NCBI GenBank assembly: GCA_016186905.1
Contig: JACPKS010000084.1
Span: 2,261 to 66,260, forward strand
Source of the DNA: Deltaproteobacteria bacterium
Lineage (GTDB): Bacteria > Bdellovibrionota > UBA1018 > UBA923
DNA: 64,000 nt
Direction of reading: 5' to 3'
Under the pieces are notes generated by a model. The model ran no database searches, had not been told where the DNA came from, and worked only from the letters and a program-made list of their open reading frames with translations. The position numbers and the translations under genes are program-made. This document shows, piece after piece, positions 2,022-63,340 of this stretch; position 1 is the first letter of the stretch; each line of letters starts with the position of its first letter.

Positions 2022-3431
2022 ATGGCTGAACAAAAAACCACCAAGCTTTTCGGCACCGACGGCATCCGTGGGAGGGCCAATGAATATCCCATGACGGGAG
2101 AGCTCGTGATGCAGGTCGGGCGTGCTACCGCGTATCTCTTTCGCAACCGGAAAGAAAAAAAACCGGTAGGCCTTGGGTCGCCGCTTTCGAACACTCGCCG
2201 TGCGAAGATTCTCATCGGAAAAGACACGCGTCTTTCGTGCTACATGATCGAGATGGCGCTCGCTTCCGGGATTTGCTCGCTCGGTGTTGACGTGCTGCTG
2301 ATCGGTCCGATGCCCACGCCCGGAATCGCGTTTCTCGCGCAGAGCATGCGCTGCGACGCGGGCATTCAGATCTCCGCGAGCCACAACGCGTTTGACGACA
2401 ACGGGGTCAAGATTTTCTCCGCCGACGGCTATAAGCTTCCCGATTCGACCGAGGCCGAAATCGAACGCCTCGTTTTTTCAAAAGAGGAACTCGAAAAATT
2501 CCGCCCGACCGCCGATCACGTCGGCAAGGCCTACCGTATCGAGGACGCCCTTGGCCGCTACATCGTGCACGTGAAGGATGCGTTTGACGAGGATCTCGAT
2601 CTGCAGGGCGTGCGACTTATTCTGGATTGCGCCAACGGTGCTTCCTATAAAGCCGCGCCACTTGTGTTCGAGGAGCTGGGCGCGGAGGTCGTTCGCAAAG
2701 GCGTCAATCCCACGGGCTTGAACATCAACGACAAGTGCGGCTCGCTTTATCCCGAAAACGTCGCTCGCGCGGTGGTCGAATACCGCGCCGACATCGGCAT
2801 CAGCCTCGACGGCGACGGCGATCGCGTGATTCTCTCGGACGAAACGGGCGAGATCGTCGACGGCGACCAGATCATGGCCATCTGCGCGCTCGAGATGAAG
2901 CGTCTGGGCACGCTCAAGAAAAACACCGTCGTCGTCACGCCGATGTCGAATATCGGGTTCGACCTTTCGCTGAAAGCAGCCGGGATCGACGTCGTGCGCG
3001 CGGGCGTCGGCGACCGCAACGTCGTCGAGGCGATGAAAAACGGCGGGTATAATTTCGGCGGCGAGCAGTCCGGTCATATCATCCTCATGGAGCACGCCAC
3101 GACGGGGGATGGCATCGTCGCAGCGCTCAAGGTTCTCGAGGTGATGCGCAGGACGGGCAAGCGCCTCTCCGAGCTCAAGAGATGCGTTAAGTTATTCCCG
3201 CAAGTGCGCGCCGACGTTCGGGTTTCGCGCAAGGAGCCGCTCAAGGACCTGAAGGAAGTGAACACCGAGATCGCCGCTGCCGAAAAAGCGCTGCAAGGAA
3301 AGGGGCGCGTGTTCGTGCGCGCTTCAGGCACTGAACCCATCGTGCGCGTGCTGCTCGAAGGCGAGGACCACGCGCAGATCCATCAGCTTTCCCGCAAGAT
3401 CGCGGCTTCGATCACGCGAGCGCTCGGATGA
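2022..3431 (+). CDS. glmM: Phosphoglucosamine mutase GlmM
   Basis: KLFGTDGIRG N-terminus and active-site SASHNAFDDNGVKIF. 469 aa. Confidence 0.92.
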   Translation: MAEQKTTKLFGTDGIRGRANEYPMTGELVMQVGRATAYLFRNRKEKKPVGLGSPLSNTRRAKILIGKDTRLSCYMIEMALASGICSLGVDVLLIGPMPTPGIAFLAQSMRCDAGIQISASHNAFDDNGVKIFSADGYKLPDSTEAEIERLVFSKEELEKFRPTADHVGKAYRIEDALGRYIVHVKDAFDEDLDLQGVRLILDCANGASYKAAPLVFEELGAEVVRKGVNPTGLNINDKCGSLYPENVARAVVEYRADIGISLDGDGDRVILSDETGEIVDGDQIMAICALEMKRLGTLKKNTVVVTPMSNIGFDLSLKAAGIDVVRAGVGDRNVVEAMKNGGYNFGGEQSGHIILMEHATTGDGIVAALKVLEVMRRTGKRLSELKRCVKLFPQVRADVRVSRKEPLKDLKEVNTEIAAAEKALQGKGRVFVRASGTEPIVRVLLEGEDHAQIHQLSRKIAASITRALG

Positions 3432-21724: not shown

Positions 21725-22936
21725 CTAAGATGCGTTTCTTGGCGATGCGCTCTCAAAATCAGAGATACGCGAAAATCCGGCGGCCGTGAGAAAAGCCAGG
21801 CCGTAGAGGGCGGCGGCGACCATGAACGGGGTGCTGGCTCCCAGGCGATCAAAGACGACTCCGCCGGCCAAGGGGCCGAGAACACGGGCCAAAGAACCCG
21901 CCGATTGGTAAATGCCCATCGTAACGCCTAAGCGAAGCGGGGGCGCGCCCTTGGAGGCGAGGCTTGAAAGCGAGGGGTTATTGAGTCCGTTTCCGATCGC
22001 GACCACCGCGATCGCGGCAATCACGCCGGTCAGGTGCCACGCGAGCGAGATTCCGGTCAGGCCGAGCGCCATGAGAATCGTTCCGCATAGAATGAGCTGA
22101 AGTTCGCCGAAACGGCGCGAGAGTTTTCCGACCAAACCGCCTTGGATGAACGCGCCGAGAAGGCCCATCAGAGCCAAAAGCCAGCCGGCTTGTTCGGGCC
22201 CGTATCCGAACCGGAAGAGCATGAAGAGCGCGAAGCTCACCTCGACCTGGGTAAAGGCAAATGTCGCGATGAAAAAGACGATGACGGCCGCGGCCGTGCG
22301 CGGATCGGCGAGAACCGAGTCGCGGAACGCCTCGCGATCAAAACGCCTGCTGAGATTCGTGGCGCGCTTGAATGCGCGGGATTTTTCGCTTGCAAGCGGT
22401 TCGGGCAGGCGCACGAGCGCGAAGAGCAGGTTGAGAAGCGCAAGGCCGGCGGCCGCGAACATCGGAGCCGCGAATCCGAACTTCGAGAGCACGCCGCCGA
22501 TGGCCGGGCCGAAGATGAATCCAAGCCCGAAGCTAGCGCCGATGATGCCCATTCCCTTGGTCCGGTCTTCGGGTGTGGTGATGTCGGCGATGTAAGCGCT
22601 CGCGGTGGAAATGTTCGCGCCGCAGATGCCGGCCAGCAGTCTTGCCGCGAAAAGCCACGCAAGCGAATGGGCCAGCCCCAGCATGCAGAGTGCCGTGATC
22701 GTGCCGGCAAGACTGACAAGAATCACCGGGCGGCGGCCGATGCGGTCGGAGAGGCGCCCCCAGAGCGGCGCGAAGAGAAACTGCATCGCGGAGTACGAGG
22801 CCATGAGCCAGCCAAGCACGGTTGCCGACGCGCCGAACGCGCGTGCGTAGTAGGGCATGATCGGAATGACGATTCCGAAGCCGACGAGGTCGATGAAGAC
22901 GACGAGGAAAATGATGAGAAGCGGGCTCTTCTTCAT
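21725..22936 (-). CDS. MFS transporter (DHA1/Tet-like, 12 TM)
   Basis: MFS motif A region GRLSDRIGRRPVIL, about 12 predicted hydrophobic helices, 403 aa. Confidence 0.85.
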   Translation of the reverse strand: MKKSPLLIIFLVVFIDLVGFGIVIPIMPYYARAFGASATVLGWLMASYSAMQFLFAPLWGRLSDRIGRRPVILVSLAGTITALCMLGLAHSLAWLFAARLLAGICGANISTASAYIADITTPEDRTKGMGIIGASFGLGFIFGPAIGGVLSKFGFAAPMFAAAGLALLNLLFALVRLPEPLASEKSRAFKRATNLSRRFDREAFRDSVLADPRTAAAVIVFFIATFAFTQVEVSFALFMLFRFGYGPEQAGWLLALMGLLGAFIQGGLVGKLSRRFGELQLILCGTILMALGLTGISLAWHLTGVIAAIAVVAIGNGLNNPSLSSLASKGAPPLRLGVTMGIYQSAGSLARVLGPLAGGVVFDRLGASTPFMVAAALYGLAFLTAAGFSRISDFESASPRNAS

Positions 22937-22993
22937 GGTTGTGCCCGGTTTTTTAGCTTTCTCGCGAAAAATTTGCTACCTTTTACGCAACAC

Positions 22994-24526
22994 ATGTCTG
23001 ACTTTCTTCAGCTGAAATCCACGGCCGACCGGCACGGCGAGTCGCGGGCTTTGAGTGCCTCGCATGCGTCGCCGCAGGCCTTCTCGGTCGATCTCAACGC
23101 ACTTGTCCGCCAGGGGGACGAGCGGTTTCAGTGGATCAAGAAAAACGCGTATTATTACGAGGATCTGAGGCGCTTCTTCACGTTTCACGTCGAAAAGGGA
23201 AAGCGCGTGCTCGAAATCGGATTCGGCACCGGGCGGCTTCTGGATGCGTGCGGTCCTTCAAAGGGGATGGGGCTCGATCTTTCCGAAGCCGTTTGCGAAC
23301 AGGCGCGCAGGCGCCACGCGGGCCACGCGTTTCATGTTTGGACAGGGCAGGGGAGGCTTCCGGAAGAGGTGATCCATGCTTTCCCGGGCGGCGTCGATTA
23401 CATCCTGCTCGTGAACGCGGTGGGTTTCTGGCCGGATATCCAGGAAGCGCTCAAACTTCTTCAGCCCATTTGCAATCGCGACACGCGCATTCTCGCGACG
23501 TATTACAATTTTCTCTGGGCGCCGCTTTTTCGCGTGGCGCAGGCGTTGCGTTTGAAAATGCCGCAGCCCGAGCAGAACTGGCTTTCGGCTGATGACGTGA
23601 AGAACCTCATGAGTCTATCGGGTTATCGCGTTTTGAAGCAGGGCTACCGCTGTCTTCTGCCTAAGAAGCTTTTCGGCCTGGCGGATTTGGTGAACCGCTT
23701 TTTTTCGCCGATTCCGGGATTGAATCGCCTGGGATGCACGCATTTCGTCATCGCGCGCGCGCCGTTTCGCCACAACCCCGAAGAGCTGCTCGTTTCGGTG
23801 GTGATTCCGGCCCGAAACGAGAGGGGGAATATCGAGGGGGCCGTGCGCCGCATGGCCATTGTCGCGCGCTCCAGGCGCGAGCGCTTCGAGATCATTTTCG
23901 TCGAGGGAAATTCCACCGACACGACCGCGGCCGAAATCGACCGCGTGATCGCCGATCCGTCGATTCCAAAGCCGTTTGCGGTTTCGGTTTTTAAGCAGAC
24001 CGGCAAGGGGAAAGGCGACGCGGTGAGATTGGGTTTTTCAAAGGCGAAGGGCGATCTGCTGATGATCCTCGACGCCGATCTCACCGTCACGCCCGAAGAT
24101 CTTCCGAAATTCATCGACGTGTATTGCGAAGGCCACGGCGAGTTCATCAACGGCTGCCGTCTCGTGTACAAGATGGAACAAGAGGCGATGCGGATCATCA
24201 ACCTCATGGGCAATAAATTTTTCGGGGTGGCGTTTAGCTGGCTTCTGGGCCAGCGGTTCAAAGACACGCTTTGCGGAACGAAGGTTGTCTCGCGCGCGAA
24301 TTACGCGCGGATCGCGGCGGGAAGGTCTTATTTCGGCGACTTCGATCCGTTCGGCGACTTCGATCTGATCTTCGGCGCCTCAAAGCTTGATCTTGAAATC
24401 GCCGAAGTGCCGATCCGGTATCGCGAGCGCGTTTACGGTCAGACCAACATCAGCCGGTGGAAACACGGCTGGCTCCTCCTCAAGATGTGCGTCTATGCTC
24501 TGGGCCGGATCAAGTTCGTTCCTTAG
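22994..24526 (+). CDS. Bifunctional class-I SAM methyltransferase / family-2 glycosyltransferase (DPM1-like polyprenyl-phosphate sugar synthase domain)
   Basis: N-terminal half has MTase motif I VLEIGFGTGRLLD. C-terminal half is GT2: VSVVIPARNERGNI...LMILDADLT (DxD). True start is ATG 22994; the ORF-track 5' extension to 22142 is antisense to the MFS gene. Confidence 0.75.
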   Translation: MSDFLQLKSTADRHGESRALSASHASPQAFSVDLNALVRQGDERFQWIKKNAYYYEDLRRFFTFHVEKGKRVLEIGFGTGRLLDACGPSKGMGLDLSEAVCEQARRRHAGHAFHVWTGQGRLPEEVIHAFPGGVDYILLVNAVGFWPDIQEALKLLQPICNRDTRILATYYNFLWAPLFRVAQALRLKMPQPEQNWLSADDVKNLMSLSGYRVLKQGYRCLLPKKLFGLADLVNRFFSPIPGLNRLGCTHFVIARAPFRHNPEELLVSVVIPARNERGNIEGAVRRMAIVARSRRERFEIIFVEGNSTDTTAAEIDRVIADPSIPKPFAVSVFKQTGKGKGDAVRLGFSKAKGDLLMILDADLTVTPEDLPKFIDVYCEGHGEFINGCRLVYKMEQEAMRIINLMGNKFFGVAFSWLLGQRFKDTLCGTKVVSRANYARIAAGRSYFGDFDPFGDFDLIFGASKLDLEIAEVPIRYRERVYGQTNISRWKHGWLLLKMCVYALGRIKFVP

Positions 24527-24576
24527 CCGCGCCGGCAGAGCGAGCAGATCCGCCGCCTCGTGCCAGGTCACGAAAT

Positions 24577-25857
24577 ATGCGCTCTGAAGACAGAGTTCCG
24601 GCCATTCTCCGCGACCCGATCGTGTGGGGAAATCTTCTATTGCGCGCGATGCTTTTCGCGCTCGCGGCCGGCGCTTGGCACTGGCACAGCGGCGATAGCG
24701 GGCATTATCTCCTGTCGGCCGAGCAAGTCTGTCGCGGCGAGTGGGGCGGCGAGCCCATCCGTGTACCGCTCTATGCCTGGTATCTCTGTCTTTCTTCTTT
24801 TGGCGCGGTTGCCCGAGGCGCGGGGGAGCTTGGCGGCTCAGGCGTCGTGCTTCCTCTTCTCGGCCAAACGCTTTTGCTCTTCGCGTGCGGGATCGTGTTG
24901 TATCGGCGCTTTGGCCGGGCGATCGCGGCGTGCTGGCTCTTTGATCCGGTGCTGCTCGTGTACGGATCTTTCGTCATGACGGATGCTTTTTTCGCGGTTT
25001 TCGTTCTGGCGATGGCGCTCACGGTATCAAGGGCATTGGAGGCACGTGCTTTGCCGCGAATCCGCGCGCGCACGCTGTATTTTTTCGGAGCGGCTCTCGG
25101 AGCGGCCATTTTGACCCGGCCGGTGGGTATTCCCTTAGGCGTCCTTTCCGCGGCGGTGCTGGGAATCCTCGCTTTGCGCGGCCGTTTCAAGGCACGAGAG
25201 ATCGCGGTGACGGCGTTGATCGTCGCGGCGTTGCTTGCGCCGCGACTGTATTGGAATCAGACCCGGCACGGCAGGCCCTTCATTGCCGAACAGGGAAGCG
25301 ACTGGATCAAGACCGTCGCGGGCGCGGTGGAATACCACGGCACGGGCCTGACGTTTCATGAGGCCGAGGAGAAATGGATGCGCGAACATCCCGCGCGTCC
25401 CGTTGCCGAGGCGTACGCCTCGATTTTCGCGCGGTTTCCGGCATGGGCGTGGCTGACATCGAAGGGCATGGCGCGCGTGCTGGTGGGCCACGTCAACGTG
25501 GAGTGGACGTATCTCTTCACGGGGCGCACCGTGCTCGGTCCGGGGTGGTTCAAAGTGGGAGAGGGCGGCGAGGGCTCGCCGGTCTCTGGAGTGTGGCTGG
25601 TTCCCTGGTTGTTCGGAATCGCGCTGGTTGCCGGCTATTACGCCTGGCTTTACCTGCGTGCGGCGCGGTCCGCGCTACCCGCGCTGAAAATGGATCGCGG
25701 ATTCGCGGCGTTCGCCGCATGGAGCCTTCTGTCCGCCGCGTTTCTGGCTTTTGCTCCGCAAGTTTTCGGAGACGCGCGCTTTCGCGCGCCGATCGTGCCG
25801 ATCGTGCTGGTGCTTTGGGGAGCCGCTCTGGAACATATTAGGAAAGCGCGCATATGA
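24577..25857 (+). CDS. Polytopic membrane glycosyltransferase, GT-C fold (PMT/ArnT, GT39/GT83-like)
   Basis: About 11 hydrophobic segments; N-terminal loop with conserved acidic/aromatic residues and the short FVMTDAFF motif typical of PMT_2/ArnT-like proteins. Start ATG 24577 (MRSEDR...). Confidence 0.55.
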   Translation: MRSEDRVPAILRDPIVWGNLLLRAMLFALAAGAWHWHSGDSGHYLLSAEQVCRGEWGGEPIRVPLYAWYLCLSSFGAVARGAGELGGSGVVLPLLGQTLLLFACGIVLYRRFGRAIAACWLFDPVLLVYGSFVMTDAFFAVFVLAMALTVSRALEARALPRIRARTLYFFGAALGAAILTRPVGIPLGVLSAAVLGILALRGRFKAREIAVTALIVAALLAPRLYWNQTRHGRPFIAEQGSDWIKTVAGAVEYHGTGLTFHEAEEKWMREHPARPVAEAYASIFARFPAWAWLTSKGMARVLVGHVNVEWTYLFTGRTVLGPGWFKVGEGGEGSPVSGVWLVPWLFGIALVAGYYAWLYLRAARSALPALKMDRGFAAFAAWSLLSAAFLAFAPQVFGDARFRAPIVPIVLVLWGAALEHIRKARI

Positions 25858-27170
25858 GGGATGCGCGCGTGATTTTCGGCGTGCTCGTCGTTTACATCCT
25901 CTCGGTTTACGGCTCGATGGCCGTGATGAGCGTGGGCAGTGGCGTGGTGTTTGCTGCGTGGATTTTTCTCTTCGCCAGGCCGCGCGTGTTTGCAGGCGAG
26001 GTCGCGGGGTGGACGCGTTCGCCGCTTTGGCGGCCGACGCTGGTTCTTTCGCTTGCTTGCGTCTGGTCGCTCGCGTGGGCGCGGATTTCTGGTCTTGAGT
26101 TTTTCGGCGCGCGGCCCGAGATCCGGTGGATCGAGGACACCCGCAAGCTATGGCATATTTTCTTTCCGTTCGTACTGAGTTCGTTTTTGATGCGGCTTTC
26201 GGATGAGGACTTCCGGAAAGCACTTTGGCTTTGGCTAGGAGCAGGCGCGGCGCTCGCGTGCTTCGGAATTCTTCAGTACTACGTTCCGATCTATAAGTCG
26301 CAGTACCTTCCGCACGTCACCTACGACACGTACGTGCGCGGAAGCGGGGCTCTCGATTTTCTGCGAGGCCGTTACCACGCGACCGGGCTTACCGGTTTTC
26401 ATTTGAGCTTCGCCTCTATTTTCGGGTTCCCGACCGGCGTGTGGTTCGCGCTTGCGGCGCTGCGGTGGCGCGAAGAAGGGTGGACGCAGCGCACGCGCTG
26501 GCTTGCAGCAGGCGCGATCTTGTTTTTTATCACCAACATTCTTACGTATTCGAAAACGACGTGGGTTGCCCTTCCTTTACTGGTGCTTGGTGTCGCGTTC
26601 GTGGCGATGAAGGGGCGCATTCGTTACATTTTGACCGCGGTCATGATCGTGTTCGCAGCGGTTGGAATGCAGACCTCCGAGTTTCGGCTGCGGTTTCAGG
26701 GGACGGACACGATTAAAGAGCGTCTTGAGGTCTGGTCGGCCAATCTCGAGATGCTCAAGCAGCATCCGTTATTCGGAGTGGGCTGGCATCACAACTCCGA
26801 TCTTTCGGAAGCGTATTACAAAGCGCGCGGGATGCACGGCTTCGTCTCGCATGCCCACAATAATTTTCTCGATCAGCTCGCGTCGACGGGCGCGTTCGGA
26901 CTTGCGGGCTTCGTGTGGTGGAACTTCATCGTGATCGCGGCTGCGTACCGGTTGTTTCGGCGGGGAGGAGTCGTTTCCCCGTCCGCCGACTCCGAGACGC
27001 GGCTTCTTTACCGCGCGCTGGGGCTGGGATTCTTCGGCGGTTGGTTTCTCTTGCACTTAAGCGGCATGACCCAAACCAATTTCTGGGACGCGAAGGTGCT
27101 GCACCAGATCGGGCTTGTCGCGGCGTTTACGTGCGAGGCGTGGCGGAGGACTTCCGCAAAGCGCACCTGA
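25854..27170 (+). CDS. O-antigen ligase / Wzy_C-family membrane protein (RfaL/PglL-like)
   Basis: Multi-TM protein with the Wzy_C periplasmic loop (TYSKTTWVALPLL ... GVGWHH...HAHNNFLDQLASTG). ATGA overlap with the upstream GT-C gene. Confidence 0.7.
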   Translation: MRDARVIFGVLVVYILSVYGSMAVMSVGSGVVFAAWIFLFARPRVFAGEVAGWTRSPLWRPTLVLSLACVWSLAWARISGLEFFGARPEIRWIEDTRKLWHIFFPFVLSSFLMRLSDEDFRKALWLWLGAGAALACFGILQYYVPIYKSQYLPHVTYDTYVRGSGALDFLRGRYHATGLTGFHLSFASIFGFPTGVWFALAALRWREEGWTQRTRWLAAGAILFFITNILTYSKTTWVALPLLVLGVAFVAMKGRIRYILTAVMIVFAAVGMQTSEFRLRFQGTDTIKERLEVWSANLEMLKQHPLFGVGWHHNSDLSEAYYKARGMHGFVSHAHNNFLDQLASTGAFGLAGFVWWNFIVIAAAYRLFRRGGVVSPSADSETRLLYRALGLGFFGGWFLLHLSGMTQTNFWDAKVLHQIGLVAAFTCEAWRRTSAKRT

Positions 27171-27275
27171 CTTTCTTATTCCATTCCTAATGTGATCTCG
27201 CGGCCGTTCGGCCTCCGTCTTGCATTCCACGTCATTTCAGTGGGTTCGGAAGCATTCCGTTGTGGATATGCACTT

Positions 27276-27289
27276 ATACATATATGTAT
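27276..27289. promoter_or_regulatory. Perfect 14-bp palindrome ATACATATATGTAT overlapping the brnT start codon (candidate BrnA/BrnT autoregulatory operator)
   Basis: Reverse complement is identical. The ATG of brnT lies at 27284-27286, inside the palindrome. Local AT-rich region. Confidence 0.45.
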
Positions 27290-27574
27290 GATATTATCTA
27301 TGAAGGGTTTGAGTGGTCGTCTAGCAAAGAGGAGCTCAATATCCTTAAACATGGCGTGAATTTTACCGAAGCGTCGACGTGCTTTAGCGATCCGAGAGGA
27401 TTTGGGTTTGATGATCTGAAGCATTCCGATGTCGAGCGACGAGAATGGTGGATTGGCATGTCGGAGCGGAAAAGAATTTTAATCACCTGGTTCACGCCTC
27501 GTGGGGAACGCATTCGGATTATCGGATCTGCGTCATTTCGTAAATTTCGGAGACTCTACAATGAAAGAACCTGA
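27284..27574 (+). CDS. brnT: BrnT toxin (DUF497, RelE/ParE-fold ribonuclease)
   Basis: MYDIIYEGFEWSSSKEELNILKHGVNFTEA...RIRIIGSASFRKF matches the BrnT pattern (F-EWD..K...N..KHGV.F.EA; RIISAR). The ORF-track TTG at 27260 is an alternative start. Confidence 0.75.
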   Translation: MYDIIYEGFEWSSSKEELNILKHGVNFTEASTCFSDPRGFGFDDLKHSDVERREWWIGMSERKRILITWFTPRGERIRIIGSASFRKFRRLYNERT

Positions 27575-27845
27575 CCTTAGAAAAATGAGATACAACAAGG
27601 AACTCACCCAACAGATCCGCAAGTCCTTCGCGGGAAAAAGGAAGACCCGCATCACGATTTACATCGACGATGATTCGCTGGAGGAGTTGAAGCGAAGTGC
27701 GGCTGACACCGGTGCGGCCTACCAATCACTGTTGAACCGTATGCTTCGCAACGCGCTTTTCAATGCCGAGGCGAACTCTACGGAAACTCGTTTGCGGCGG
27801 ATCGAACGGGAGCTCGCTCGGTTGAAGAAAAAGATTGCGGCGTAG
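27561..27845 (+). CDS. brnA: BrnA antitoxin (CopG/RHH-like)
   Basis: Overlaps the brnT 3' end by 14 nt. ITIYIDDDSLEELKRSAADTGAAYQSLLNRMLRNAL matches the BrnA signature (TIRLDDDVLEWFK...GYQTRIN..LR). Confidence 0.7.
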   Translation: MKEPDLRKMRYNKELTQQIRKSFAGKRKTRITIYIDDDSLEELKRSAADTGAAYQSLLNRMLRNALFNAEANSTETRLRRIERELARLKKKIAA

Positions 27846-27960
27846 GTAAGGCGAATCACCAGGTTTAGGCCATATTAATTCCGTGCAGGAGAGCCCAATC
27901 GTGACGCCTGAGTTGATGGTTGGAAGCGCCGGCTGGACATATGCAAGACGAACAACAAGG

Positions 27961-28293
27961 CTATCTTCGCGCCACGAGCTTTTTGATGCTGATCCGGCAA
28001 TACCCGTCGAAGACTTCCGCTTCGTCGAAAATCTCGGAAATGGAGCGAACCTGCGCGACATGATCGTTTGTCCCCAGGAGTAAGCTTTCAAACGACATGC
28101 CCAGCGCCTTCGCCAAGCGCGCGATCGCGCGCAAGTCGTGCGGATTCGCGCCGCTCACCCAATTCTGAACCACGCTGGTGCTCACGTCGGCCATCTCGGC
28201 GACATTGCGAAGAGTGAGATGGCGCTCTTTCATCACGGTCGAGAGAATCTTGCTGAACGGGAGCTTGTTCGTTCCGGCGTTTTTGCTCGGCAT
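27961..28293 (-). CDS. XRE-family helix-turn-helix transcriptional regulator
   Basis: HTH_3 core KERHLTLRNVAEMADVSTSVVQNWVSGANPHDLRAIARLAKALGMSFESLL. Start taken at the ATG giving MPSKNAG...; the ORF-track upstream extension lacks support. Confidence 0.7.
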   Translation of the reverse strand: MPSKNAGTNKLPFSKILSTVMKERHLTLRNVAEMADVSTSVVQNWVSGANPHDLRAIARLAKALGMSFESLLLGTNDHVAQVRSISEIFDEAEVFDGYCRISIKKLVARR

Positions 28294-28345
28294 GCGTCCC
28301 TCTATGTTCGTATCGCATGCGCAGACGAGAAAGAGGTTTGCCGAA

Positions 28346-28357
28346 AACTGTACAGTT
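28346..28357. promoter_or_regulatory. Perfect 12-bp palindrome AACTGTACAGTT about 55 nt upstream of the XRE start (candidate operator)
   Basis: Reverse complement is identical. Located in the XRE 5' region. Confidence 0.4.
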
Positions 28358-28452
28358 ACGTTTTGCAGTATTTGAGGCCGGCTTGGAAAGCGGTTCATCG
28401 AACGCATCGCGCGTGCAGCGATGCAAACGGTGTTCCGAGTCGCGGAGCGCCG

Positions 28453-28935: not shown

Positions 28936-29007
28936 TCCGCGCCTCGCGCAGAGGTTAAATCACGTGCGCATCTCTATCCGCGCCTCGCGCCCGCGCTAAA
29001 TCGTGAG
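28936..29007. repeat. Two direct copies (period 41 bp) of an about 31-bp element TCCGCGCCTCGCGC-N5-TAAATC(A/G)TG at the 3' end of the Y1 transposase gene (REP-like or IS200-end-like)
   Basis: Copy 1 is 28936-28966 and copy 2 is 28977-29007, with an identical 14-nt core. Copy 1 contains the GCGCA...TGCGC inverted repeat. Confidence 0.55.
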
Positions 29008-29553
29008 ACGGCCGTTTCGGATGAAGAATCGCCTCACCGTCCCATTGGCGGTCAGCAGTTCGATGCCCTCGCCCTCGAAAGCATTCTTCGTGAAGTAATG
29101 GTGCAGACCGAGCAGGTCTTTTCCCCAGTTCACGACGCGGGAGTAGGCGAGGGAGTCCCAGAATTTCCGTTTTACGTCGCTTGCGTGCCCGTGTTCGCCG
29201 GCGGCATTCCTTCCGGCGAGATTCACGCCTTCGGTCCGCGGCGCAACGGCCTTTCCTTTCTTCGCCCCGGTGACGCGCGTGGCGATTTGCGCCGGTACTG
29301 TGCGCATGAACGACTGAAAATCTCCGCGACGGCTTGCCCGCACCAGCAAATGCACGTGATTCCCGACGTTTTCAAAGTGCATGACTCGCACCCTGAATCG
29401 GTGCGCAAATTTATAGACGATGCTGTCGATCGATTTCTTGTGCGCTAGGCTCAGAAGTGACCATGAACCGCGTGCTCGCGAGGAGCGCATGACGATATGG
29501 ACCGGGCGCTTCGTGTCGAGCGGGCGAAACGTCTTGCGGCGTCCGCGTTCCAA
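28996..29553 (-). mobile_element. IS200/IS605-type Y1 HuH transposase (TnpA, or REP-associated tyrosine transposase RAYT), orphan with no tnpB
   Basis: HuH motif GNHVHLLVRAS and catalytic Tyr region KFWDSLAYSRVVNWG, 185 aa. Flanked at its 3' end by the direct repeats above. Confidence 0.75.
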
Positions 29554-52496: not shown

Positions 52497-55400
52497 TTAC
52501 CGCAACGGGATGGCAGGCAGGCCGTTTCCGAGCGAAAGAGGCGTTAGGCCGATATTCTGGCTGTGTCCTAATCCTAGCTGGCCGTATCCATTGTAGCCCC
52601 AGCATTTGATCTGGTTGTCGTCGAGAGTCGCGCAGGTGTGGTGTGTGCCGGCCGCGATGTCGATGGCTTTGAGCGTTCTGCCGCCCGCGGCGGTTCCTGC
52701 GCCAGTATCGGTTCCGAGGTCCACCGCGACAAGCCGGTCACCCATGTCGCCCGAGTAGTAGCCGTGGTTTTGGCCGCCGTCGGGAATGCCAAGTTGGCCG
52801 TTAACGCCGTAGCCCCAGCACTTCACCCGTCCGTTGTCGAGCAGCGCGCAGGAATGGTAGAAACCAAGTGCTAGTTTTTTGGCCGTACGATTCGTGCCGA
52901 GATCGACATAAGGAAGAGAATCGCCCATCTCGTGGCCGGACGTCCCGCTATCGCCGCGGTTTACCGAATTGCCGGTTCCGAGCTGACCGTAGCCGTTGTA
53001 TCCCCAGCACTTCACTTTGCTGTTGCCCAAAATCGCGCAATTGTGCCCATACCCTGAGTCGACTTGAACCGCGGTAAGCGCGCCTCCCGTGCCGTCGCCA
53101 TTTACGGTGCCGAGATTAACGTACGGAAGGTTATCGCCCATCTGGTGGCCGGCGGCAGCACTATCGCCGCGCGGGGTGGTATCGCCAAGGCCTAGCTCCC
53201 CGTTGGAATTGTAGCCCCAGCACTTCACGCGGCCATTGCTCAGGATCGCGCAGTTATTGAGCACGCCGGAAGCCTGCACGGCCACGAGCGCGCCGCCCGT
53301 GCCGTCGCCGCCCACCGTTCCGAGGTTGACGTATGGAAGATTATCGCCCATCGTGCCGCCTTGGCCGCGATAGTCGGTATTTTCGTAGCCAAGCGAGCCC
53401 CAAGCGCCGTAGCCCCAGCATTTCAGGTGCGAGCCGGAAGCACTGTCATCCAAGATCGCGCACGCGTGATAAGCGGTTTGCTTGATGGACTTCACCGTGC
53501 GCCCGGTTCCGAGATCGACGTAGGAAAGCGCATCGCCCATCTGGTGGCCCGCGGCCGGCGAGTCGCCGCGGTTGGTTCCGTCGCCAAGGCCCAAATTGTA
53601 ATATCCGGTGTTGTAGCCGAAGCATTTCATTTTTCCGCTGTTCATCAGCGTGCAAACGGATTGGGCGCCGGCTCCCATTTTCACGTCGATGGCGTAATCA
53701 GTGCTCGAAAGATTGATGGACTCAAGGCTTGGCCCCATCTCGCCAGGCTCATCGCCGACCCATGGATTGCGCGAAACCGAGTGGTAGGAATCGTTGCCTG
53801 AGGCCTGACCCCAGCACTTCACGCGCCCGCTCTGCAGCAGCGCGCAGGTGTGGGAGTTGCCGGTTGAGATCATCGCTGGTTTGTCGTTTACGCCGCTGCC
53901 TAAGTTTATTTGCGGAAGGTCGTCGCCCATCAGGTGCCCGGCGCTCATGTTGTCTCCGCGATTGACGGTGTCGCCAAGGCCTAGCTGGCCGTAGGCGTTG
54001 TAGCCCCAGCACTTCATCCCCCCGTCATCCAGAATCACGCAGCTGTGGTTTGCGCCCATGGCGATCGCGGTGGCCGTGCGCCCAGTGCCCAGGCTCACGT
54101 ACGGAAGATTATCGCCCATCGTGCCGGCGGCATTTCCGTAATTGGTGGTGTTGCCAAGGCCAAGCTCGCCGCTTCCGTTGTTGCCCCAGCATTTAACGAG
54201 ATCATTGTCGAGAATCGCGCAAGCCTGGAGGTGGCCTACGGCAAGATGCTTTGCCGTGCGCCCCGTGCCAAGGCTCACGTAGGGGAGGTTGTCTCCCATC
54301 GTGCCCAGGCTACCGCCGCGATCAGTCGTATTTTCGTAGCCAAGATTGCCCCAGTCGTTTCGGCCCCAGCATTTCACGCGCGAGCCTGCTGCGCCGCTAT
54401 CGAGGAGCGCGCAGGTGAAATCGTAGCCTGCCGCGATTTCGACCGCGGTGCGGCCGGTTCCAAGATCGACGGGGCCTGTCGGAGTGGTGCGGGTCGCGGT
54501 GTCGCCAAGACCTAGCTCACCGTAGCCGTTGTAGCCCCAGCACTTCACGGTGCCGTCATCCAGGAGCGCGCAGGCATGGAGGCGGCCTACGGCAACCTGG
54601 ACTGCCGTGCGTCCGGCTCCCAGGTTCAAAAACGGCATGTTGTCGCCCGAAGTGCTTAGGTAGTAGCCGTAAGCCGTAGTGTCGCCCGTGCCAAGATTGC
54701 TGTAGTAGTTGGGACCCCAGCATTTCACTTTCCCGGCATTTGCACCCGAGAAAATCGCGCAGTTAAAACCGTTGTAGTCGTTGGTGAGACTGCTTTTGAT
54801 CGAGGCCACGGTTTTTCCGGCGCCAAAGAGCGCGAAGGGAAGGAGATTTCCCATGCTCCAGAGACTCGCACCGTAGCTCGTGGCATTGGTGGCGTTTGCT
54901 AGAGCGCCGTAGCCGTTGTAGCCAAAGCATTTGACATTTCCGTCGGTGAGCACGGCACAGGTGTAGTATTGGCCGGCCAGGATGGATGTCGCAAGCCACG
55001 GGTTGTTCAAGCTATCCGTGCCGAAATCGACTGCCGGCAAATTATCGCCCATTTGTGAGGACTTTGCTCCGAGATAAGCTTTCTCGTTTCCGAGCTGGCC
55101 GTAATTATTTCGGCCAAAGCATTTCGTGTTGCTTGAAGTCGAGGAAGTCGGGTCGACAACACACGTGGAAGCGTCGCCGGCGGCGATTTTTCGGGGAAGA
55201 AAAACGTGGATCGTGATGGTCGTCACGTGACTGTTGGAATCGGAAACCTGCACGGTAGTACTCGCGGGGCTTGAGGTGAGGGTCGCGGGCGCCGTGAATT
55301 GCGCCGTGTTTGTGCCGGTGTTGAGTGTGCCGCCGCCTGCGAGCAGCGTGAACGAGTAGGGCGCGCTCCCACCTGAAAGCTCGAGGGTAAGCGTGCCTCC

Positions 55401-58400
55401 AGCCACGAGCGAGCGGGCGGTGGTGACAGGCTGATCGAAATCGTAGACCAGATTATCGCTGCTGGTCGCGCCGGCATAGACGTTGTCTTGCGGAACGGTG
55501 GGGGATAGCGTGTAAGGAAGATAATCGCCCAAGGTAAGCGGGTTGTCGCCCGTGTTGGCTGTTGCCATTCCGATTCCAAGCTGGCCCCAGGCGTTGTAAC
55601 CCCAGCATTTGACGCCATTGTTGTCGAGAACGGCGCAGGTGTAATAGTTACCGGCGAAAACGTCGAGCGCGGTTCTTCCGGTGCCAAGATTTACGGCACG
55701 AAGATTATCGCCCATCTCGCCGGCCTGATTGCCGATGTTGTCGTTATTGCCGCTCTTATCGCCAAGGCCTAGCTGGCCCCAGGCGTTGTAGCCCCAGCAC
55801 TTGATCTGATTGTTGTCGAGTACGGCGCAGGTGTGATAAATGCCGGTCACGACTTTTTTGGCGGTTCTTCCGGTTCCGAGATCGACAAAGGGAAGGGCGT
55901 TTCCCATCAGGTGGCCGGCGGCAGTGCTGTCGCCGCGATTGACGGTGTCGCCAATGCCTAGCTGGCCGTAGATGTTGTAGCCCCAGCACTTGATTTTGCC
56001 GCCCGCGATGAGCGCGCAAGAGTGGGTATAGGAGGTGGAAAGCTGCGTCACCTGCCAGGGATTGTTCGAGCCATCAGTGCCCAGATTCACGAAAGGAAGG
56101 TTGTCGCCCATCGTATTAGGAGCATTACCTCGTGGGTCGCTGTTGCCATACCCGAGGTTTCCCCAAGGATTCGGACCGTAGGGACTGTTGCCCCAGCACT
56201 TCACACCTCCGTTTGAAAGTAGCGCGCAGTGATACGCGTAATAACCGCTGCTGACTTGCTTTGCGACCAGGGGCGTGCCGCCGATTCCGTCCACCGTTCC
56301 GAGATTCACGTAGGGAAGAGTGACGAGATCTTGAAAATAATAATAACCATTCGTGTTCTCAAGGCCTAGCTGTCCGTATTCGTTTGCGCCCCAGCATTTC
56401 AGATGCGAATTCTGGCCTGCCCCGTCGTCTAGAATCGCGCATGTGCTTGAATTATTGGACGCACCCGTGGCAACCTGTTTTACGGTGCGGCCAAAACCCA
56501 CGAACGCGGTGGGGAGCCCGTCGCCCATCGTGCCTAGCTTGTCGCCATGGTAGGGAAAGCTGTTGGCTGGCGGCTCGCCGCCGGTTCCAAGCTGGCCGGC
56601 GCTGTTTGCGCCCCAACATTTGAGTTCTCCGGTGTTGAGAATCGAACAGGTGTACTGGTCGTTGCTGGAGTTGGCTTCGATGTCGGTGGCATAGCGGTTT
56701 GTTCCAAGATTGACCGTCTTGCTGCCGGCCATCTCGCCGGGTGCGTCGCCAAGTGTCGCGTTCTCATTGCCAAGCGCTCCGTAGTCGGTCGTGTCGGTTT
56801 GCACCGAGCCCCAGCACTTGACCGTGTTGTTGTCGAGAAGCGCGCAGGTGTTGTCGTGCTGGGGAGCGATGTCTTTGACCGTACGGCCCGAACCGAGGTC
56901 CACGTAGGCAAGGTTGTCGCCCATATTGTTTAAGCTTCCACCGACGTTATTTAAGTGGCCAAGACCTAGCTGGGCGAAAGTATTGAGGCCCCAGCATTTC
57001 AGATGCGAGTTTAAGCCTGCGGCGTCGTCCAGAATCGCGCAGGTGTGGTGGTTGCCCAGTTTTATTTTCTTCACGGTGCGGCCTGTACCCAGGCTTACGT
57101 AGGGGAGCTGATCGCCCATCTCGCCGGCTACCGCGCCGATGCTATACCAAGGGCTCGGGTACTGGGAGGAGCTGGAATTGATGCCGCTTCCAACCTGCCC
57201 GTAATTGTTGTTGCCCCAGCATTTGAGTTTATCGTTATCGAGGATCGCGCAGGTGTGCTCGGAGCCGCATGAAATCGCCTTAGCCGTGCGGCCCGTCCCA
57301 AGATCGACAAACGCAAGCGCGTTGCCCATTTCGCCGGCTTCGTCTCCGATGTTGGCTTTGCTTGCGGAATTATCTCCAAGACCTAGCTGGCCGTAGTTGT
57401 TTCTTCCCCAGCACTTGACCTTGTCGTTGTTCAAAATCGCGCAGGTGTGGCCAAAACCCGCGGCGATGGCTTTGGCGTAGTAGGGATTGCCGCTTCCATT
57501 TCCGGCATCATCGCCGAGATCGACGATGGGCCCTGGCGAGAAGCGGTTGGCCGTGTCGCCGTATCCAAGCTGGCCTTGGTAACCGTTGTACCCCCAGCAC
57601 GTCACGCGCGAGCCTGAGGCACCGCTGTCCAGGATCGCGCAGGCATGAAGCGAGCCGTAGGCCAGGTCCGTTGCCGTGCGGCCCAAGCCGAGATTTACGA
57701 ACGGGATATTGTCGCCGCTTATGAAAGGATAATAACCGTAACCGTAAGAGTAATACCAACTGGTGCTGTCCCCAACGCCTACGGTTCCGTAGGAGTTATT
57801 GCCCCAACATCGCACCTTGCCAAGATCGGTGCCATTCAAGATCGCGCAGCCGCCGCTGCCCTGGGGATTTGCGGCGATTTTGAACGCCGTTTTTCCGGTT
57901 CCCAAAAGCAGATACGGAAGATGATCGCCCATCTCGTTGGGAAAGAGTCCGAAGTTCCGGCCAGAGCTGGCGTTTCCAAGCGCGCCGCTACCGTTGTAGC
58001 CCCAGCCCTTGGCCGTGCCGCTCGTGAACTTCACGAACGCTCCCGCATACCCGCCCACGATTGAATCCGGCACGAGGCCTGTGCCGAGTTTTATGGGAGA
58101 AAGCGCATCCCCCATTTCGCCCGCTTGATCGCCGATCGCGAAGGTTTCATCCCCGCGCTGGCCATACTGGGAACGTCCCCAGCAGTTGACCGTGCTTGAC
58201 GTGAGGCTCGCGCGCGTGAGCGCGCACGCGTGCTCGGAACCCAGTGCCAGTTTTCTCGGAACGAACGCGTGGACCGTGGTGTCTGAGGTATTCCCCCCGC
58301 CGTCGGTTACGCGAATCACGCTGTCTCCCGGAGCGGCGCCGGCGGTAAACGTCGTGCTTGTAGGGCCCGAGCTCAAAAACCCGCCGCCCAGCACGATCGA

Positions 58401-63154: not shown

Positions 63155-63340
63155 TGAAAAAAGCGCCTCCAGGTACTTAACTATCGGTCTTTTTATGTAA
63201 ATACTTGATATAAACACTGTACTATTTTATCTGCAAGCGATGTGGAATCTCAAAAAAACATGACTTTGATACTCAAAGGGTTTTTAAAATTTGTTAATTT
63301 ATATGAACTATCACCGTGCTTCGCCCTGAAAAACCAAGAA

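Follow-up and report, generated by a model that had tools for sequence, protein, structure and literature searches.

A putative operon for LPS-directed periplasmic glycosylation and ligation in a Bdellovibrionota-like bacterium

Three consecutive genes of a Bdellovibrionota-like bacterium, an organism represented by a metagenome-assembled contig, may form an operon for the periplasmic glycosylation of LPS and the ligation of its glycan. The chances that this reading is correct are judged to be about even, and its substrates are ones that we infer. The genes lie in a 64,000-nucleotide stretch of DNA, referred to here as the window. They encode, in order, a fusion of a class-I SAM methyltransferase with a GT2 of the polyprenyl-phosphate sugar synthase type (g1), a polytopic PMT_2/ArnT-like GT-C glycosyltransferase without a large periplasmic C-terminal domain (g2), and a protein with the predicted fold of a WaaL-type ligase (g3).

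Layout and surroundings of the genes

All three open reading frames that a sequence-only reading had placed on the + strand at 22994–27170 are present, with the starts of the deposited proteins. Gene g1 occupies 22994–24526 (510 aa), g2 runs from an ATG at 24577 to 25857 (426 aa), and g3 occupies 25854–27170 (438 aa); the products match deposited proteins P0001, P0155 and P0121, respectively, at 100% identity and coverage. The open reading frame of g2 reaches further 5′, to a GTG at 24457. The ATGA in which the stop of g2 and the start of g3 overlap, an arrangement of translational coupling, is visible at 25854–25857 (+ strand), as had been noted. A divergent intergenic region of 57 bp (22937–22993) separates g1 from a gene for an MFS transporter on the − strand. 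The promoter of the operon is presumed to lie there, going only by the gene layout; a scan of this interval for a consensus sigma-70 site found none.

Upstream, the neighbours encode Der, a TPR protein, BamB, EF-G and the MFS transporter. Downstream are BrnT/BrnA, an HTH protein, a TonB_C-like protein, an IS200-like gene, Lon and TrpRS. These flanks hold no wzx, wzz, further wzy or nucleotide-sugar gene, in keeping with the earlier observation that such genes are not adjacent, and no LPS core or O-antigen genes occur elsewhere in the window. A PGM/PMM gene is found at 2022–3431, 21 kb upstream of the module.

Domains and folds of the three proteins

The domains originally assigned to the proteins (methyltransferase plus GT2, PMT/ArnT-like GT-C, and Wzy_C) are upheld by Pfam matches far beyond chance. 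The methyltransferase domain of g1 covers aa 52–215 (23147–23638, + strand), where Methyltransf_23, _12 and _25 match at E values of 3e-8 to 1.5e-6, all above their gathering scores. All of 11 homologues from several phyla retain its SAM motif, E74-x-G76-x-G78-x-G80, together with the acidic D95 and D135. Since the SAM-binding residues are conserved, the domain is probably active, and it is reasonable to suppose that it methylates the sugar handled by its fusion partner.

The GT2 catalytic domain follows at aa 266–503 (23789–24502, + strand). Within it, Glycos_transf_2 (PF00535) matches aa 268–402 at E 8e-22, and the AglJ model of NCBIfam covers aa 267–503. The DxD reported earlier is present as D360-A-D362 and is invariant in 11 of 11 diverse homologues, as are the motifs KDTLCGTK and FDPFGDFD. 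Whether searched as a single sequence or as a family profile, g1 has only polyprenyl-phosphate sugar synthases as its best PDB relatives; for the profile, these include DPMS (5mlz, 1.9e-20), ArnC (2.4e-15) and GtrB (4e-9). In NCBIfam, g1 is matched best by AglJ, ArnC, Dol-P-hexose transferase and PgfS, although it scores far under every curated equivalog cut-off (55 against 529 bits for ArnC). No hydrophobic TM segment is predicted in g1, in contrast to ArnC, GtrB and archaeal DPMS, all of which have TM helices.

For g2, the PMT_2 match has an E value of 1.5e-7 and a score of 32.2 bits against a Pfam cut-off of 26.1. The structure model predicts a GT-C fold, closest to ArnT, its best structural match, and to Pmt4. 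One homologue with 37% identity (L089) lies in a cluster with genes for Wzm, a Wzt bearing a Wzt_C domain, WecG, a phosphoglycosyltransferase, GT2 and GT4 enzymes and methyltransferases, that is, a cluster of the ABC-transporter (Wzm/Wzt) O-polysaccharide type.

The Wzy_C domain of g3 is matched at E 1.7e-19 in Pfam, and the only PDB match of the g3 family profile is the WaaL of Cupriavidus metallidurans (7tpg, E 6.3e-11). In the profile alignment, R290 and H335 of g3 fall on the catalytic Arg (VRLKIWH) and His (EHAHND) of WaaL, and both are invariant in the g3 family. Foldseek with the AF2 model (pLDDT 89.3) likewise places 7tpg first (E 5.5e-7, TM 0.60/0.65), followed by FtsW. Orthologues with 44% identity in two further, related genomes (L084 and L085) belong to operons in which they adjoin genes for heptosyltransferase-like GT9 and core-type glycosyltransferases; SDR epimerase and GT4 genes also lie there. 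The likeness to WaaL has its limits, however: identity with 7tpg is only about 15%, g3 of the window lies outside a core-LPS locus, and its N-terminal half carries invariant motifs specific to the lineage (YGSMAxMS, KLWH and YHATGxxGFHLS).

Linkage of the genes in other genomes

The window, L081, L086 and L091, which represent related genomes, share one syntenic site that holds the overlapping g2–g3 pair. The position of g3 is constant in all four, within the order MFS gene, g3, a 140-aa gene, (Lon) and TrpRS, as expected of a vertically inherited core gene. In the window and L081, g1 completes the site as g1-g2-g3. L086 and L091 carry g2–g3 there without g1, so that g1 may not be the obligatory donor source of g2. 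In four contigs, g1 is closely spaced with g2 or g3 on the same strand. In L001, adjacent g1 and g2 stand beside genes for GDP-mannose 4,6-dehydratase, an epimerase, a GT2 and a phosphoglycosyltransferase, and in L088 g1 adjoins g3.

The family of g1 is very large and spans multiple phyla; no experimental characterisation of it was found. Of the genes directly adjoining g1-family members at 75 loci from other species, 22% encode polytopic proteins (at least 6 TM segments), compared with 4.7% of those at least 6 genes away, an enrichment of about 4.6-fold. The commonest recognisable family among these polytopic neighbours is PMT_2 (14 of 79), and YfhO and Wzy_C are represented by 4 each. The neighbourhoods are also enriched in a second methyltransferase and sometimes hold GDP-6-deoxyhexose genes, and GT4 plus GT2 glycosyltransferases are often present.

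Such sugar genes, the g2–g3 sites without g1 and the lack of a TM helix would also suit another role for g1, as a GT2 that builds glycans in the cytoplasm and is joined to a methyltransferase that caps them, rather than a lipid-monosaccharide synthase, its adjacency to g2–g3 reflecting a shared pathway or a chance insertion. It would then resemble the terminator/polymerase proteins that carry a methyltransferase in O-antigen pathways dependent on an ABC transporter, pathways in which methylated glycan termini are common. Multidomain methyltransferase-GT2 proteins of this kind exist, for example ORF6 of Klebsiella pneumoniae O7 (PMC11231755), and in these and WbdD, as in g1, a SAM methyltransferase and glycan-assembly functions are physically linked. 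The Wzt_C-bearing Wzt in L089, of a type that typically reads a terminal cap, and the several methyltransferases of that cluster point the same way. Nevertheless, this role is improbable. Proteins like WbdD and O7 ORF6 have coiled-coil rulers, kinase modules and polymerising GT2 domains, whereas neither a coiled coil nor a kinase region is present in g1, which has only 510 aa and whose GT2 is consistently nearest to DPMS, ArnC, GtrB and AglJ. The enrichment of polytopic, often GT-C, neighbours and the tight packing with g2 or g3 also argue for a synthase of lipid-linked sugars.

Related systems and the proposed scheme

A lipid-linked monosaccharide donor combined with periplasmic transfer, as first suggested from the sequence, fits a GT2 nearest to DPMS, ArnC and GtrB and a GT-C fold near ArnT and Pmt4. 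The decoration of a glycan, originally put forward as one alternative, is the reading that the evidence favours. Comparable systems include those of the GtrA/GtrB/GtrC type for periplasmic O-antigen glycosylation (the Shigella, Salmonella, Klebsiella galactose and pentofuranose systems; PMC11127046). As in these, a GT2 polyprenyl-phosphate sugar synthase-like enzyme and a GT-C transferase are encoded together, a g2 homologue belongs to an O-polysaccharide cluster, and the expected target of the module is a glycan linked to Und-PP or lipid A, before the ligation step or close to it. In contrast, the window holds no flippase gene of the GtrA, SMR or MATE type. The synthase lacks the TM helices of GtrB and has a methyltransferase at its N-terminus, a WaaL-like gene is translationally coupled to the GT-C gene, and housekeeping genes surround the module, which is part of neither a prophage nor an O-antigen locus.

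The ArnC/ArnT system, which puts L-Ara4N on lipid A, and the FlmF1/FlmF2/FlmK system likewise join a lipid-phosphate-sugar donor to periplasmic transfer onto LPS, and in Francisella the GT2 synthases FlmF1/F2 and the GT-C enzyme FlmK add sugars to lipid A (PMC2233673). With ArnC among the best matches of g1, g2 could be an ArnT/FlmK-like enzyme that places a neutral sugar on lipid A, with g1 providing the Und-P-sugar and g3 just a neighbouring ligase. An example would be mannoses in place of the lipid A phosphates, as in Bdellovibrio; Schwudke et al. are said to have described mannosylated neutral lipid A in Bdellovibrio bacteriovorus in 2003. The coupling of g2 to g3 could be rationalised here too, as lipid A-core is also the acceptor of WaaL. 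This explanation is nonetheless unlikely: g2 (426 aa against about 540) lacks the C-terminal periplasmic domain of ArnT, its subfamily is small (39 representative clusters at E <= 1e-30), the L089 homologue is not with lipid A genes, and no LpxE/LpxF-type phosphatase gene was seen near the operon. To our knowledge, a methyltransferase domain has no role in lipid A modification. As further differences from the ArnC/ArnT and Flm systems, ArnA/B/D/E/F-type genes are absent here, and we know of no such methyltransferase fusion in those systems.

Protein O-glycosylation, with g3 as a PglL-type O-oligosaccharyltransferase, had also been proposed. Here, g1 would make a polyprenyl-phosphate sugar, and the protein transferase would be a PMT-like g2 acting on Ser/Thr of secreted proteins, the PglL-type g3, or both. 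Actinobacterial GT2 plus GT-C pairs, such as Ppm1/Pmt of protein O-mannosylation, glycosylate Ser/Thr-rich protein regions, and in Ppm1 the synthase is also fused to another enzyme domain. Streptococcal GtrB/GT-C pairs act on similar regions (PMC12041528). In other phyla, members of the g1 family sometimes adjoin membrane-plus-TPR or Wzy_C-plus-TPR proteins, which suggests protein acceptors. The host here is Gram-negative, however, and g2 is a small GT-C without TPR or MIR domains, coupled to a WaaL-like gene and with no evident protein substrate; no pilin or candidate acceptor gene adjoins the operon. Two giant RCC1-repeat proteins (16–18% Ser+Thr) are encoded downstream in the window and had been offered as substrates, but they are 25 kb away, beyond respiratory and fatty-acid genes, and nothing ties them to the module. 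As for g3, Wzy_C and the conserved Arg and His are common to WaaL and to PglL/PilO/TfpM, and WaaL and PglL-type enzymes are not reliably separated by sequence or fold (PMC3643930). Still, nothing speaks positively for a PglL-type g3: WaaL is its top match, PglL_A (PF15864) had no match in g3 at E <= 0.1 in Pfam, and TfpM scores 20 bits against an NCBIfam cut-off of 600. Kinship of g3 with WaaL and LPS loci in relatives had been named beforehand as what would count against a PglL-type role, and this is borne out in part by the heptosyltransferase-like genes beside g3 orthologues and by the O-polysaccharide-type cluster of the g2 homologue. The pglL genes described so far, by contrast, are located away from LPS loci (PMC3643930). 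Of the explanations weighed, protein O-glycosylation is the least probable.

In the favoured scheme of LPS-directed glycosylation and ligation, the GT2 domain of g1 would, by its family resemblance to DPMS, ArnC and GtrB, use a nucleotide sugar to load a single sugar onto polyprenyl (undecaprenyl) phosphate on the cytoplasmic side of the inner membrane. The fused methyltransferase would O-methylate this sugar before or after lipid loading, and some flippase, a gap in the scheme, would turn the lipid-linked sugar to the periplasmic face. There, g2, with its predicted ArnT/PMT architecture, may pass the sugar to an LPS intermediate, either lipid A-core or an Und-PP-linked O-chain. Finally, g3 would serve as the WaaL-type ligase of the lineage, joining the Und-PP-linked glycan to lipid A-core, as its fold, catalytic residues and orthologue context suggest. 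The module is thus most likely a variant of the GtrB/GtrC- and ArnC/ArnT-type systems and not a new protein-glycosylation machine, with g1 as an accessory donor-synthase module that adjoins g2–g3 in some genomes only.

The module and its surroundings

The module consists of three genes on the + strand: g1, encoding a methyltransferase-GT2 fusion of 510 aa (22994-24526); g2, encoding a PMT_2/ArnT-like GT-C protein of 426 aa (24577-25857 from its ATG); and g3, encoding a Wzy_C protein of 438 aa (25854-27170). All three were recovered by ORF calling with the same starts as the identical deposited proteins P0001, P0155 and P0121, which come from a 66.8-kb MAG contig labelled "Deltaproteobacteria bacterium". 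The sequence-only reading had proposed these ORFs, their domains, the ATGA shared by g2 and g3 (25854-25857) and flanks free of wzx/wzy/wzz and sugar-nucleotide genes, and its picture of the module is borne out by the ORF calls, the deposited proteins and Pfam (Glycos_transf_2 plus methyltransferase in g1, PMT_2 in g2 and Wzy_C in g3).

On the 5′ side of the module lie genes for Der, a TPR protein, BamB, EF-G and a divergent MFS transporter. The 3′ flank holds a BrnT/BrnA toxin-antitoxin pair, an HTH protein, a TonB_C-like 158-aa protein, an IS200-like gene, Lon and TrpRS. Tables of promoter-like and terminator-like sites for positions 22700-27600 were of little help, giving a single promoter-like site, located after g3 (1.7 expected), and 14 terminator-like sites, mostly within genes (8.7 expected). 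The remainder of the window is taken up by tRNA-modification and other housekeeping genes, alternative complex III, a cytochrome oxidase operon and fatty-acid genes.

Relative to two syntenic loci of other genomes (L086 and L091), positions 27176-28450 and 28996-29553 of the window are inserted. The inserted genes sit among g3, the conserved 158-aa TonB_C-like gene and Lon, and comprise the BrnT/BrnA pair (27260-27845), an HTH_3 protein (27961-28407, - strand) and a fragment of an IS200-like Y1 transposase (28996-29553, - strand). These extra genes suggest local mobile-element activity beside the module.

Elsewhere in the window, a phosphoglucomutase/phosphomannomutase-family gene at 2022-3431 is the sole gene seen that relates to sugar activation; at 21 kb upstream of the module, it is too distant for linkage. 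Between 34800 and 47200 the G+C content is much lower (46-49% at 36-44 kb, compared with 58-62% elsewhere), and this compositional jump may reflect horizontal acquisition. The genes of this region encode c-type cytochromes, alternative complex III (an ActB-like Mo/FeS protein, NrfD and ActD), SCO1, and a cytochrome oxidase operon (COX1/2/3 and a UbiA-type haem farnesyltransferase). The low-GC block at 36-44 kb was considered as a polysaccharide locus and ruled out, as it consists of the alternative complex III and cytochrome oxidase genes. Two giant proteins, whose longest ORFs correspond to 2370 and 1299 aa and overlap by ~290 nt, are encoded on the - strand at 52497-63217; they are made of many RCC1/RCC1-like repeats plus a SprB repeat, with a Ser+Thr content of 16-18%. 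They had been put forward as possible glycosylation substrates, and no link between them and the module was found.

Domains, folds and conserved residues

Within g1, Glycos_transf_2 (PF00535) spans residues 268-402 (E 8e-22), and residues 52-215 match Methyltransf_23, Methyltransf_12 and Methyltransf_25, all above the Pfam gathering cut-offs. An alignment of 11 diverse homologues shows invariance of the GT2 DxD motif (D360-A-D362), the SAM motif E74-x-G76-x-G78-x-G80, the acidic residues D95 and D135, and the long C-terminal motifs KDTLCGTK and FDPFGDFD, which makes it probable that each domain is active.

The solved structures that best match the GT2 domain are all polyprenyl-phosphate sugar synthases, to the exclusion of other GT2 classes. 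Searched against the PDB as a single sequence, the domain retrieved ArnC (~4e-12), DPMS (2.6e-10) and GtrB (1e-5); with a family profile, the values were 1.9e-20 for DPMS, 2.4e-15 for ArnC and 4e-9 for GtrB. The top entries were 5mlz (DPMS), 9hwj, 9bhc and 8vxh (ArnC), and 5ekp (GtrB). Among the NCBIfam models, AglJ, ArnC, Dol-P-hexose transferase and PgfS scored best, all far below their equivalog cut-offs (90 bits against 325 for AglJ, 55 against 529 for ArnC, and 49 against 375 for Dol-P-hexose transferase). g1 is orthologous to no named enzyme.

ArnC, GtrB and archaeal DPMS are anchored by C-terminal TM helices, whereas none is predicted in g1, which has no hydrophobic 19-residue segment above threshold; its C-terminus is conserved and amphipathic in the 11-member alignment. 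Such an anchor is not strictly defining, since some polyprenyl-P glycosyltransferase family members, human DPM1 among them, also have no TM helix. For the methyltransferase part, a PDB search with residues 1-265 returned generic methyltransferases only (E >= 1e-3), with no clue to the methyl acceptor, and the matches of the family profile were likewise generic. A link to hopanoids, prompted by a weak HpnB match and the list of taxa, was rejected on the HpnB score (25 bits, cut-off 379) and on the presence of the g1 family in Bacteroidales, Omnitrophota and Elusimicrobiota.

The PMT_2 match of g2 is above the Pfam cut-off (32.2 bits against 26.1; E 1.5e-7). Neither single-sequence nor profile searches of the PDB found a relative, so the fold was resolved by structure prediction only: g2 is predicted to adopt the GT-C membrane fold, and the soluble periplasmic C-terminal domain of the ArnT/PMT/OST kind is absent. 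An acidic residue in a G/S-D-S motif of the predicted first extracytoplasmic loop (D40) is kept in all eight full-length homologues, and D136 is invariant in the homologue alignment. A word-indexed search retrieved only nine relatives. An exhaustive profile search gave 39 representative clusters at E <= 1e-30, followed by a sharp drop in score, below which lie broader GT-C-like proteins of ~450 aa (280 at E <= 1e-10 and 3097 at E <= 1e-3).

Wzy_C (E 1.7e-19) was the sole Pfam model listed for g3 at E <= 0.1. The first search found 34 family members, from Bdellovibrionota-like sources, and a metagenome scan with the g3 alignment found only five loci, one of which duplicates L084. The only PDB entry matched by the family profile was WaaL of Cupriavidus metallidurans (7tpg; E 6.3e-11). 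The same structure ranked first in a Foldseek search with the AlphaFold2 model of g3 (pLDDT 89.3; E 5.5e-7, TM 0.60/0.65), followed by FtsW; g3 combines a Wzy_C domain with a WaaL-like 12-TM fold. R290 and H335 of g3, invariant in 27 homologues, align with the Arg and His of the 7tpg segments VRLKIWH and EHAHND. In E. coli WaaL, R288 and H338 in the periplasmic loop are needed for ligation, and these two residues are conserved in PglL as well (PMC3643930). Since residues and fold do not discriminate between these two enzymes, WaaL must be told from PglL by genomic context.

Gene contexts of g2-g3 and of the g1 family

In the window, neither an LPS core/O-antigen locus around g3 nor a pilin or acceptor gene next to it was found. 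In L081, a Bacteriovoracia locus with a g1 65% identical to that of the window, a partner methyltransferase (- strand) is followed by g1, g2 and g3, and then by genes for a UbiE-like methyltransferase, a conserved ~134-aa protein and TrpRS, all on the - strand. L086 and L091 carry the MFS gene (- strand) and then g2-g3 with overlapping stop and start codons, at a site that matches the syntenic site of the window minus g1; a conserved ~140-aa gene and TrpRS follow on the - strand, with Lon in between in L086. L088 has the partner methyltransferase (- strand), g1, g3 and the UbiE-like methyltransferase, with no g2 in its visible part. In L001, genes for a phosphoglycosyltransferase, an epimerase, a GT2 and a GDP-mannose dehydratase precede g1 and g2, the latter cut by the contig end. 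Finally, in L084 and L085 (g3 44% identical), g3 is the last gene of an operon shared with genes for SDR epimerase and GT4-type glycosyltransferases. A GT9 gene runs divergently from this operon, and its best models are without exception LPS heptosyltransferases (I, II and III), with scores below cut-off. From these contexts, the behaviour of g3 is that of a core gene passed on vertically and variably joined to LPS-core or O-polysaccharide genes; g2-g3 is a conserved coupled pair; and g1 is an accessory that joins the pair in some genomes.

A g2 homologue (37% identical) also occurs in L089:1-17215, a Bdellovibrionales locus with genes for Wzm, Wzt bearing a Wzt_C cap-binding domain, WecG, a phosphoglycosyltransferase and GT2/GT4 enzymes, together with three methyltransferases, a weakly Wzy_C-like 397-aa protein and a weakly MatE-like 430-aa protein. 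It resembles a complete ABC-transporter-dependent polysaccharide cluster, and its MatE-like protein could be the type of flippase missing from the module. The UbiE-like methyltransferase (~235 aa) adjoins g3 orthologues at L081:12071-12787, L085:8259-8963, L088:11565-12017 and in L093.

The g1 family is far wider than the trio. Over 8000 database proteins share >=50% identity with g1 across 90% of its length, and some sources call them [quoted passage not shown]. Scanning a single genome for each species gave at least 595 loci. Hosts include Nitrospira, cyanobacteria, Bradyrhizobium and other Alphaproteobacteria, Planctomycetota, Omnitrophota, Bacteroidales, Ignavibacteria, Elusimicrobiota, a candidate-phylum bacterium and one MAG labelled as an archaeon. 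The family is highly conserved (45-55% identity across phyla), and its annotation is generic only. A full-text literature search found no experimental study of a methyltransferase-GT2 polyprenyl-P synthase fusion, an absence that is not proof.

To survey neighbourhoods, ORFs were called and clustered in 80 loci of other species, with the fusion gene recognisable in 75. Polytopic proteins (>=6 TM segments, >=300 aa) made up 22% of immediately adjacent genes, compared with 4.7% of those six or more genes away. The 79 polytopic neighbours include 14 with PMT_2, four each with Wzy_C and YfhO, three with LPG_synthase_TM, and many others with no Pfam match. This enrichment of polytopic and GT-C neighbours is consistent with g1 acting as donor synthase for GT-C enzymes. 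In nine of the 75 loci, GDP-mannose 4,6-dehydratase or a related epimerase is encoded no more than four genes from the fusion, and in 22 a separate Methyltransf_11 protein of ~250 aa is encoded no more than two genes away.

This Methyltransf_11 partner recurs beside the fusion across phyla (L008, L014, L019, L020, L031, L056 and others, as well as L081-L083 and L088). It is located downstream in Nitrospira and divergently upstream in Bdellovibrionota-like contigs. With the fusion it forms a conserved pair that brings together two methyltransferase activities and one GT2. A tblastn search of the window (E 1e-3) found neither the c1-type partner methyltransferase nor the UbiE-like methyltransferase that neighbours g3 orthologues.

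A proposed route, its rivals and its meaning

The best-supported model is a five-step scheme, in which g1 would supply g2. The GT2 domain of g1 would load a sugar onto undecaprenyl phosphate at the cytoplasmic face of the membrane, and the fused methyltransferase would methylate that sugar. A flippase would carry the lipid-linked sugar across the membrane, g2 would attach it on the periplasmic side to lipid A-core or the Und-PP-linked O-chain, and g3 would ligate the O-chain to lipid A-core. The module would work like the GtrB/GtrC and ArnC/ArnT systems, placed beside waaL; it falls outside every named equivalog family. It also departs from a three-component system (synthase, flippase and GT-C) in its flippase: near the module, no small multi-TM ORF of the GtrA, SMR or MATE kind was found, and the only transporter gene is the divergent MFS gene, which is also present where g1 is absent. 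Along with the flippase, the weak points of the scheme are the lack of a TM helix in g1 and the two genomes in which g1 is missing beside g2-g3. Distinctive of the module are the fusion of a methyltransferase to the synthase and a compact GT-C gene translationally coupled to the ligase gene.

An attractive rival is a lipid A-specific role like that of ArnT/FlmK, which is not separable here from decoration of the core or O-chain. Bdellovibrio lipid A is mannosylated, a point in favour of this role. Further precedent comes from Francisella (PMC2233673).

Protein O-glycosylation, raised by the sequence-only reading, is possible: the match of g2 to Pmt4 is almost as good as that to ArnT, and Wzy_C is ambiguous between ligases and O-OTases. 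However, no positive marker for it was found. [quoted passage not shown] Orthologue contexts also speak against this reading, as the g3 orthologues of L084 and L085 lie in LPS-type loci. Elsewhere in the g1 family, the fusion gene adjoins polytopic TPR-fused proteins at L026:9406-11160, L048:9803-12076 and L036:3038-5107, in Omnitrophota, Nitrospira japonica and a Magasanikbacteria MAG; one joins a membrane domain to TPR, and two join Wzy_C to TPR (758 and 690 aa). Because this architecture recalls the eukaryotic TMTC protein O-mannosyltransferases, a protein acceptor is conceivable in those lineages by analogy. Lastly, a cytoplasmic glycosyltransferase with a capping methyltransferase, like K. 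pneumoniae O7 ORF6 (PMC11231755), is a disfavoured reading of g1, given its DPMS/ArnC-type GT2 domain and the GT-C neighbours enriched around its family.

The LPS-directed reading of the trio is plausible. If right, it would represent an unreported variant of LPS decoration by a lipid-P-sugar and a GT-C enzyme, in a poorly studied lineage of predatory bacteria. For the window alone the value is modest, and the wider value rests with the g1 family, which is very large, widespread and uncharacterised. A bolder idea, which we consider unlikely, is that the fusion family (at least 595 loci in many phyla) builds a methylated polyprenyl-phosphate sugar, such that O-methylation takes place while the sugar is on its lipid carrier, and GT-C enzymes in the periplasm then transfer the finished O-methyl sugars to LPS or other envelope glycans. 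Methylated sugars are common in environmental bacteria; if the idea is true, it would give a general route to them that has not been described, and the conserved second methyltransferase partner would yield di-O-methyl donors. Once defined, the product of the g1 family would annotate hundreds of glycan loci, and it could explain how O-methyl sugars reach periplasmic glycans.
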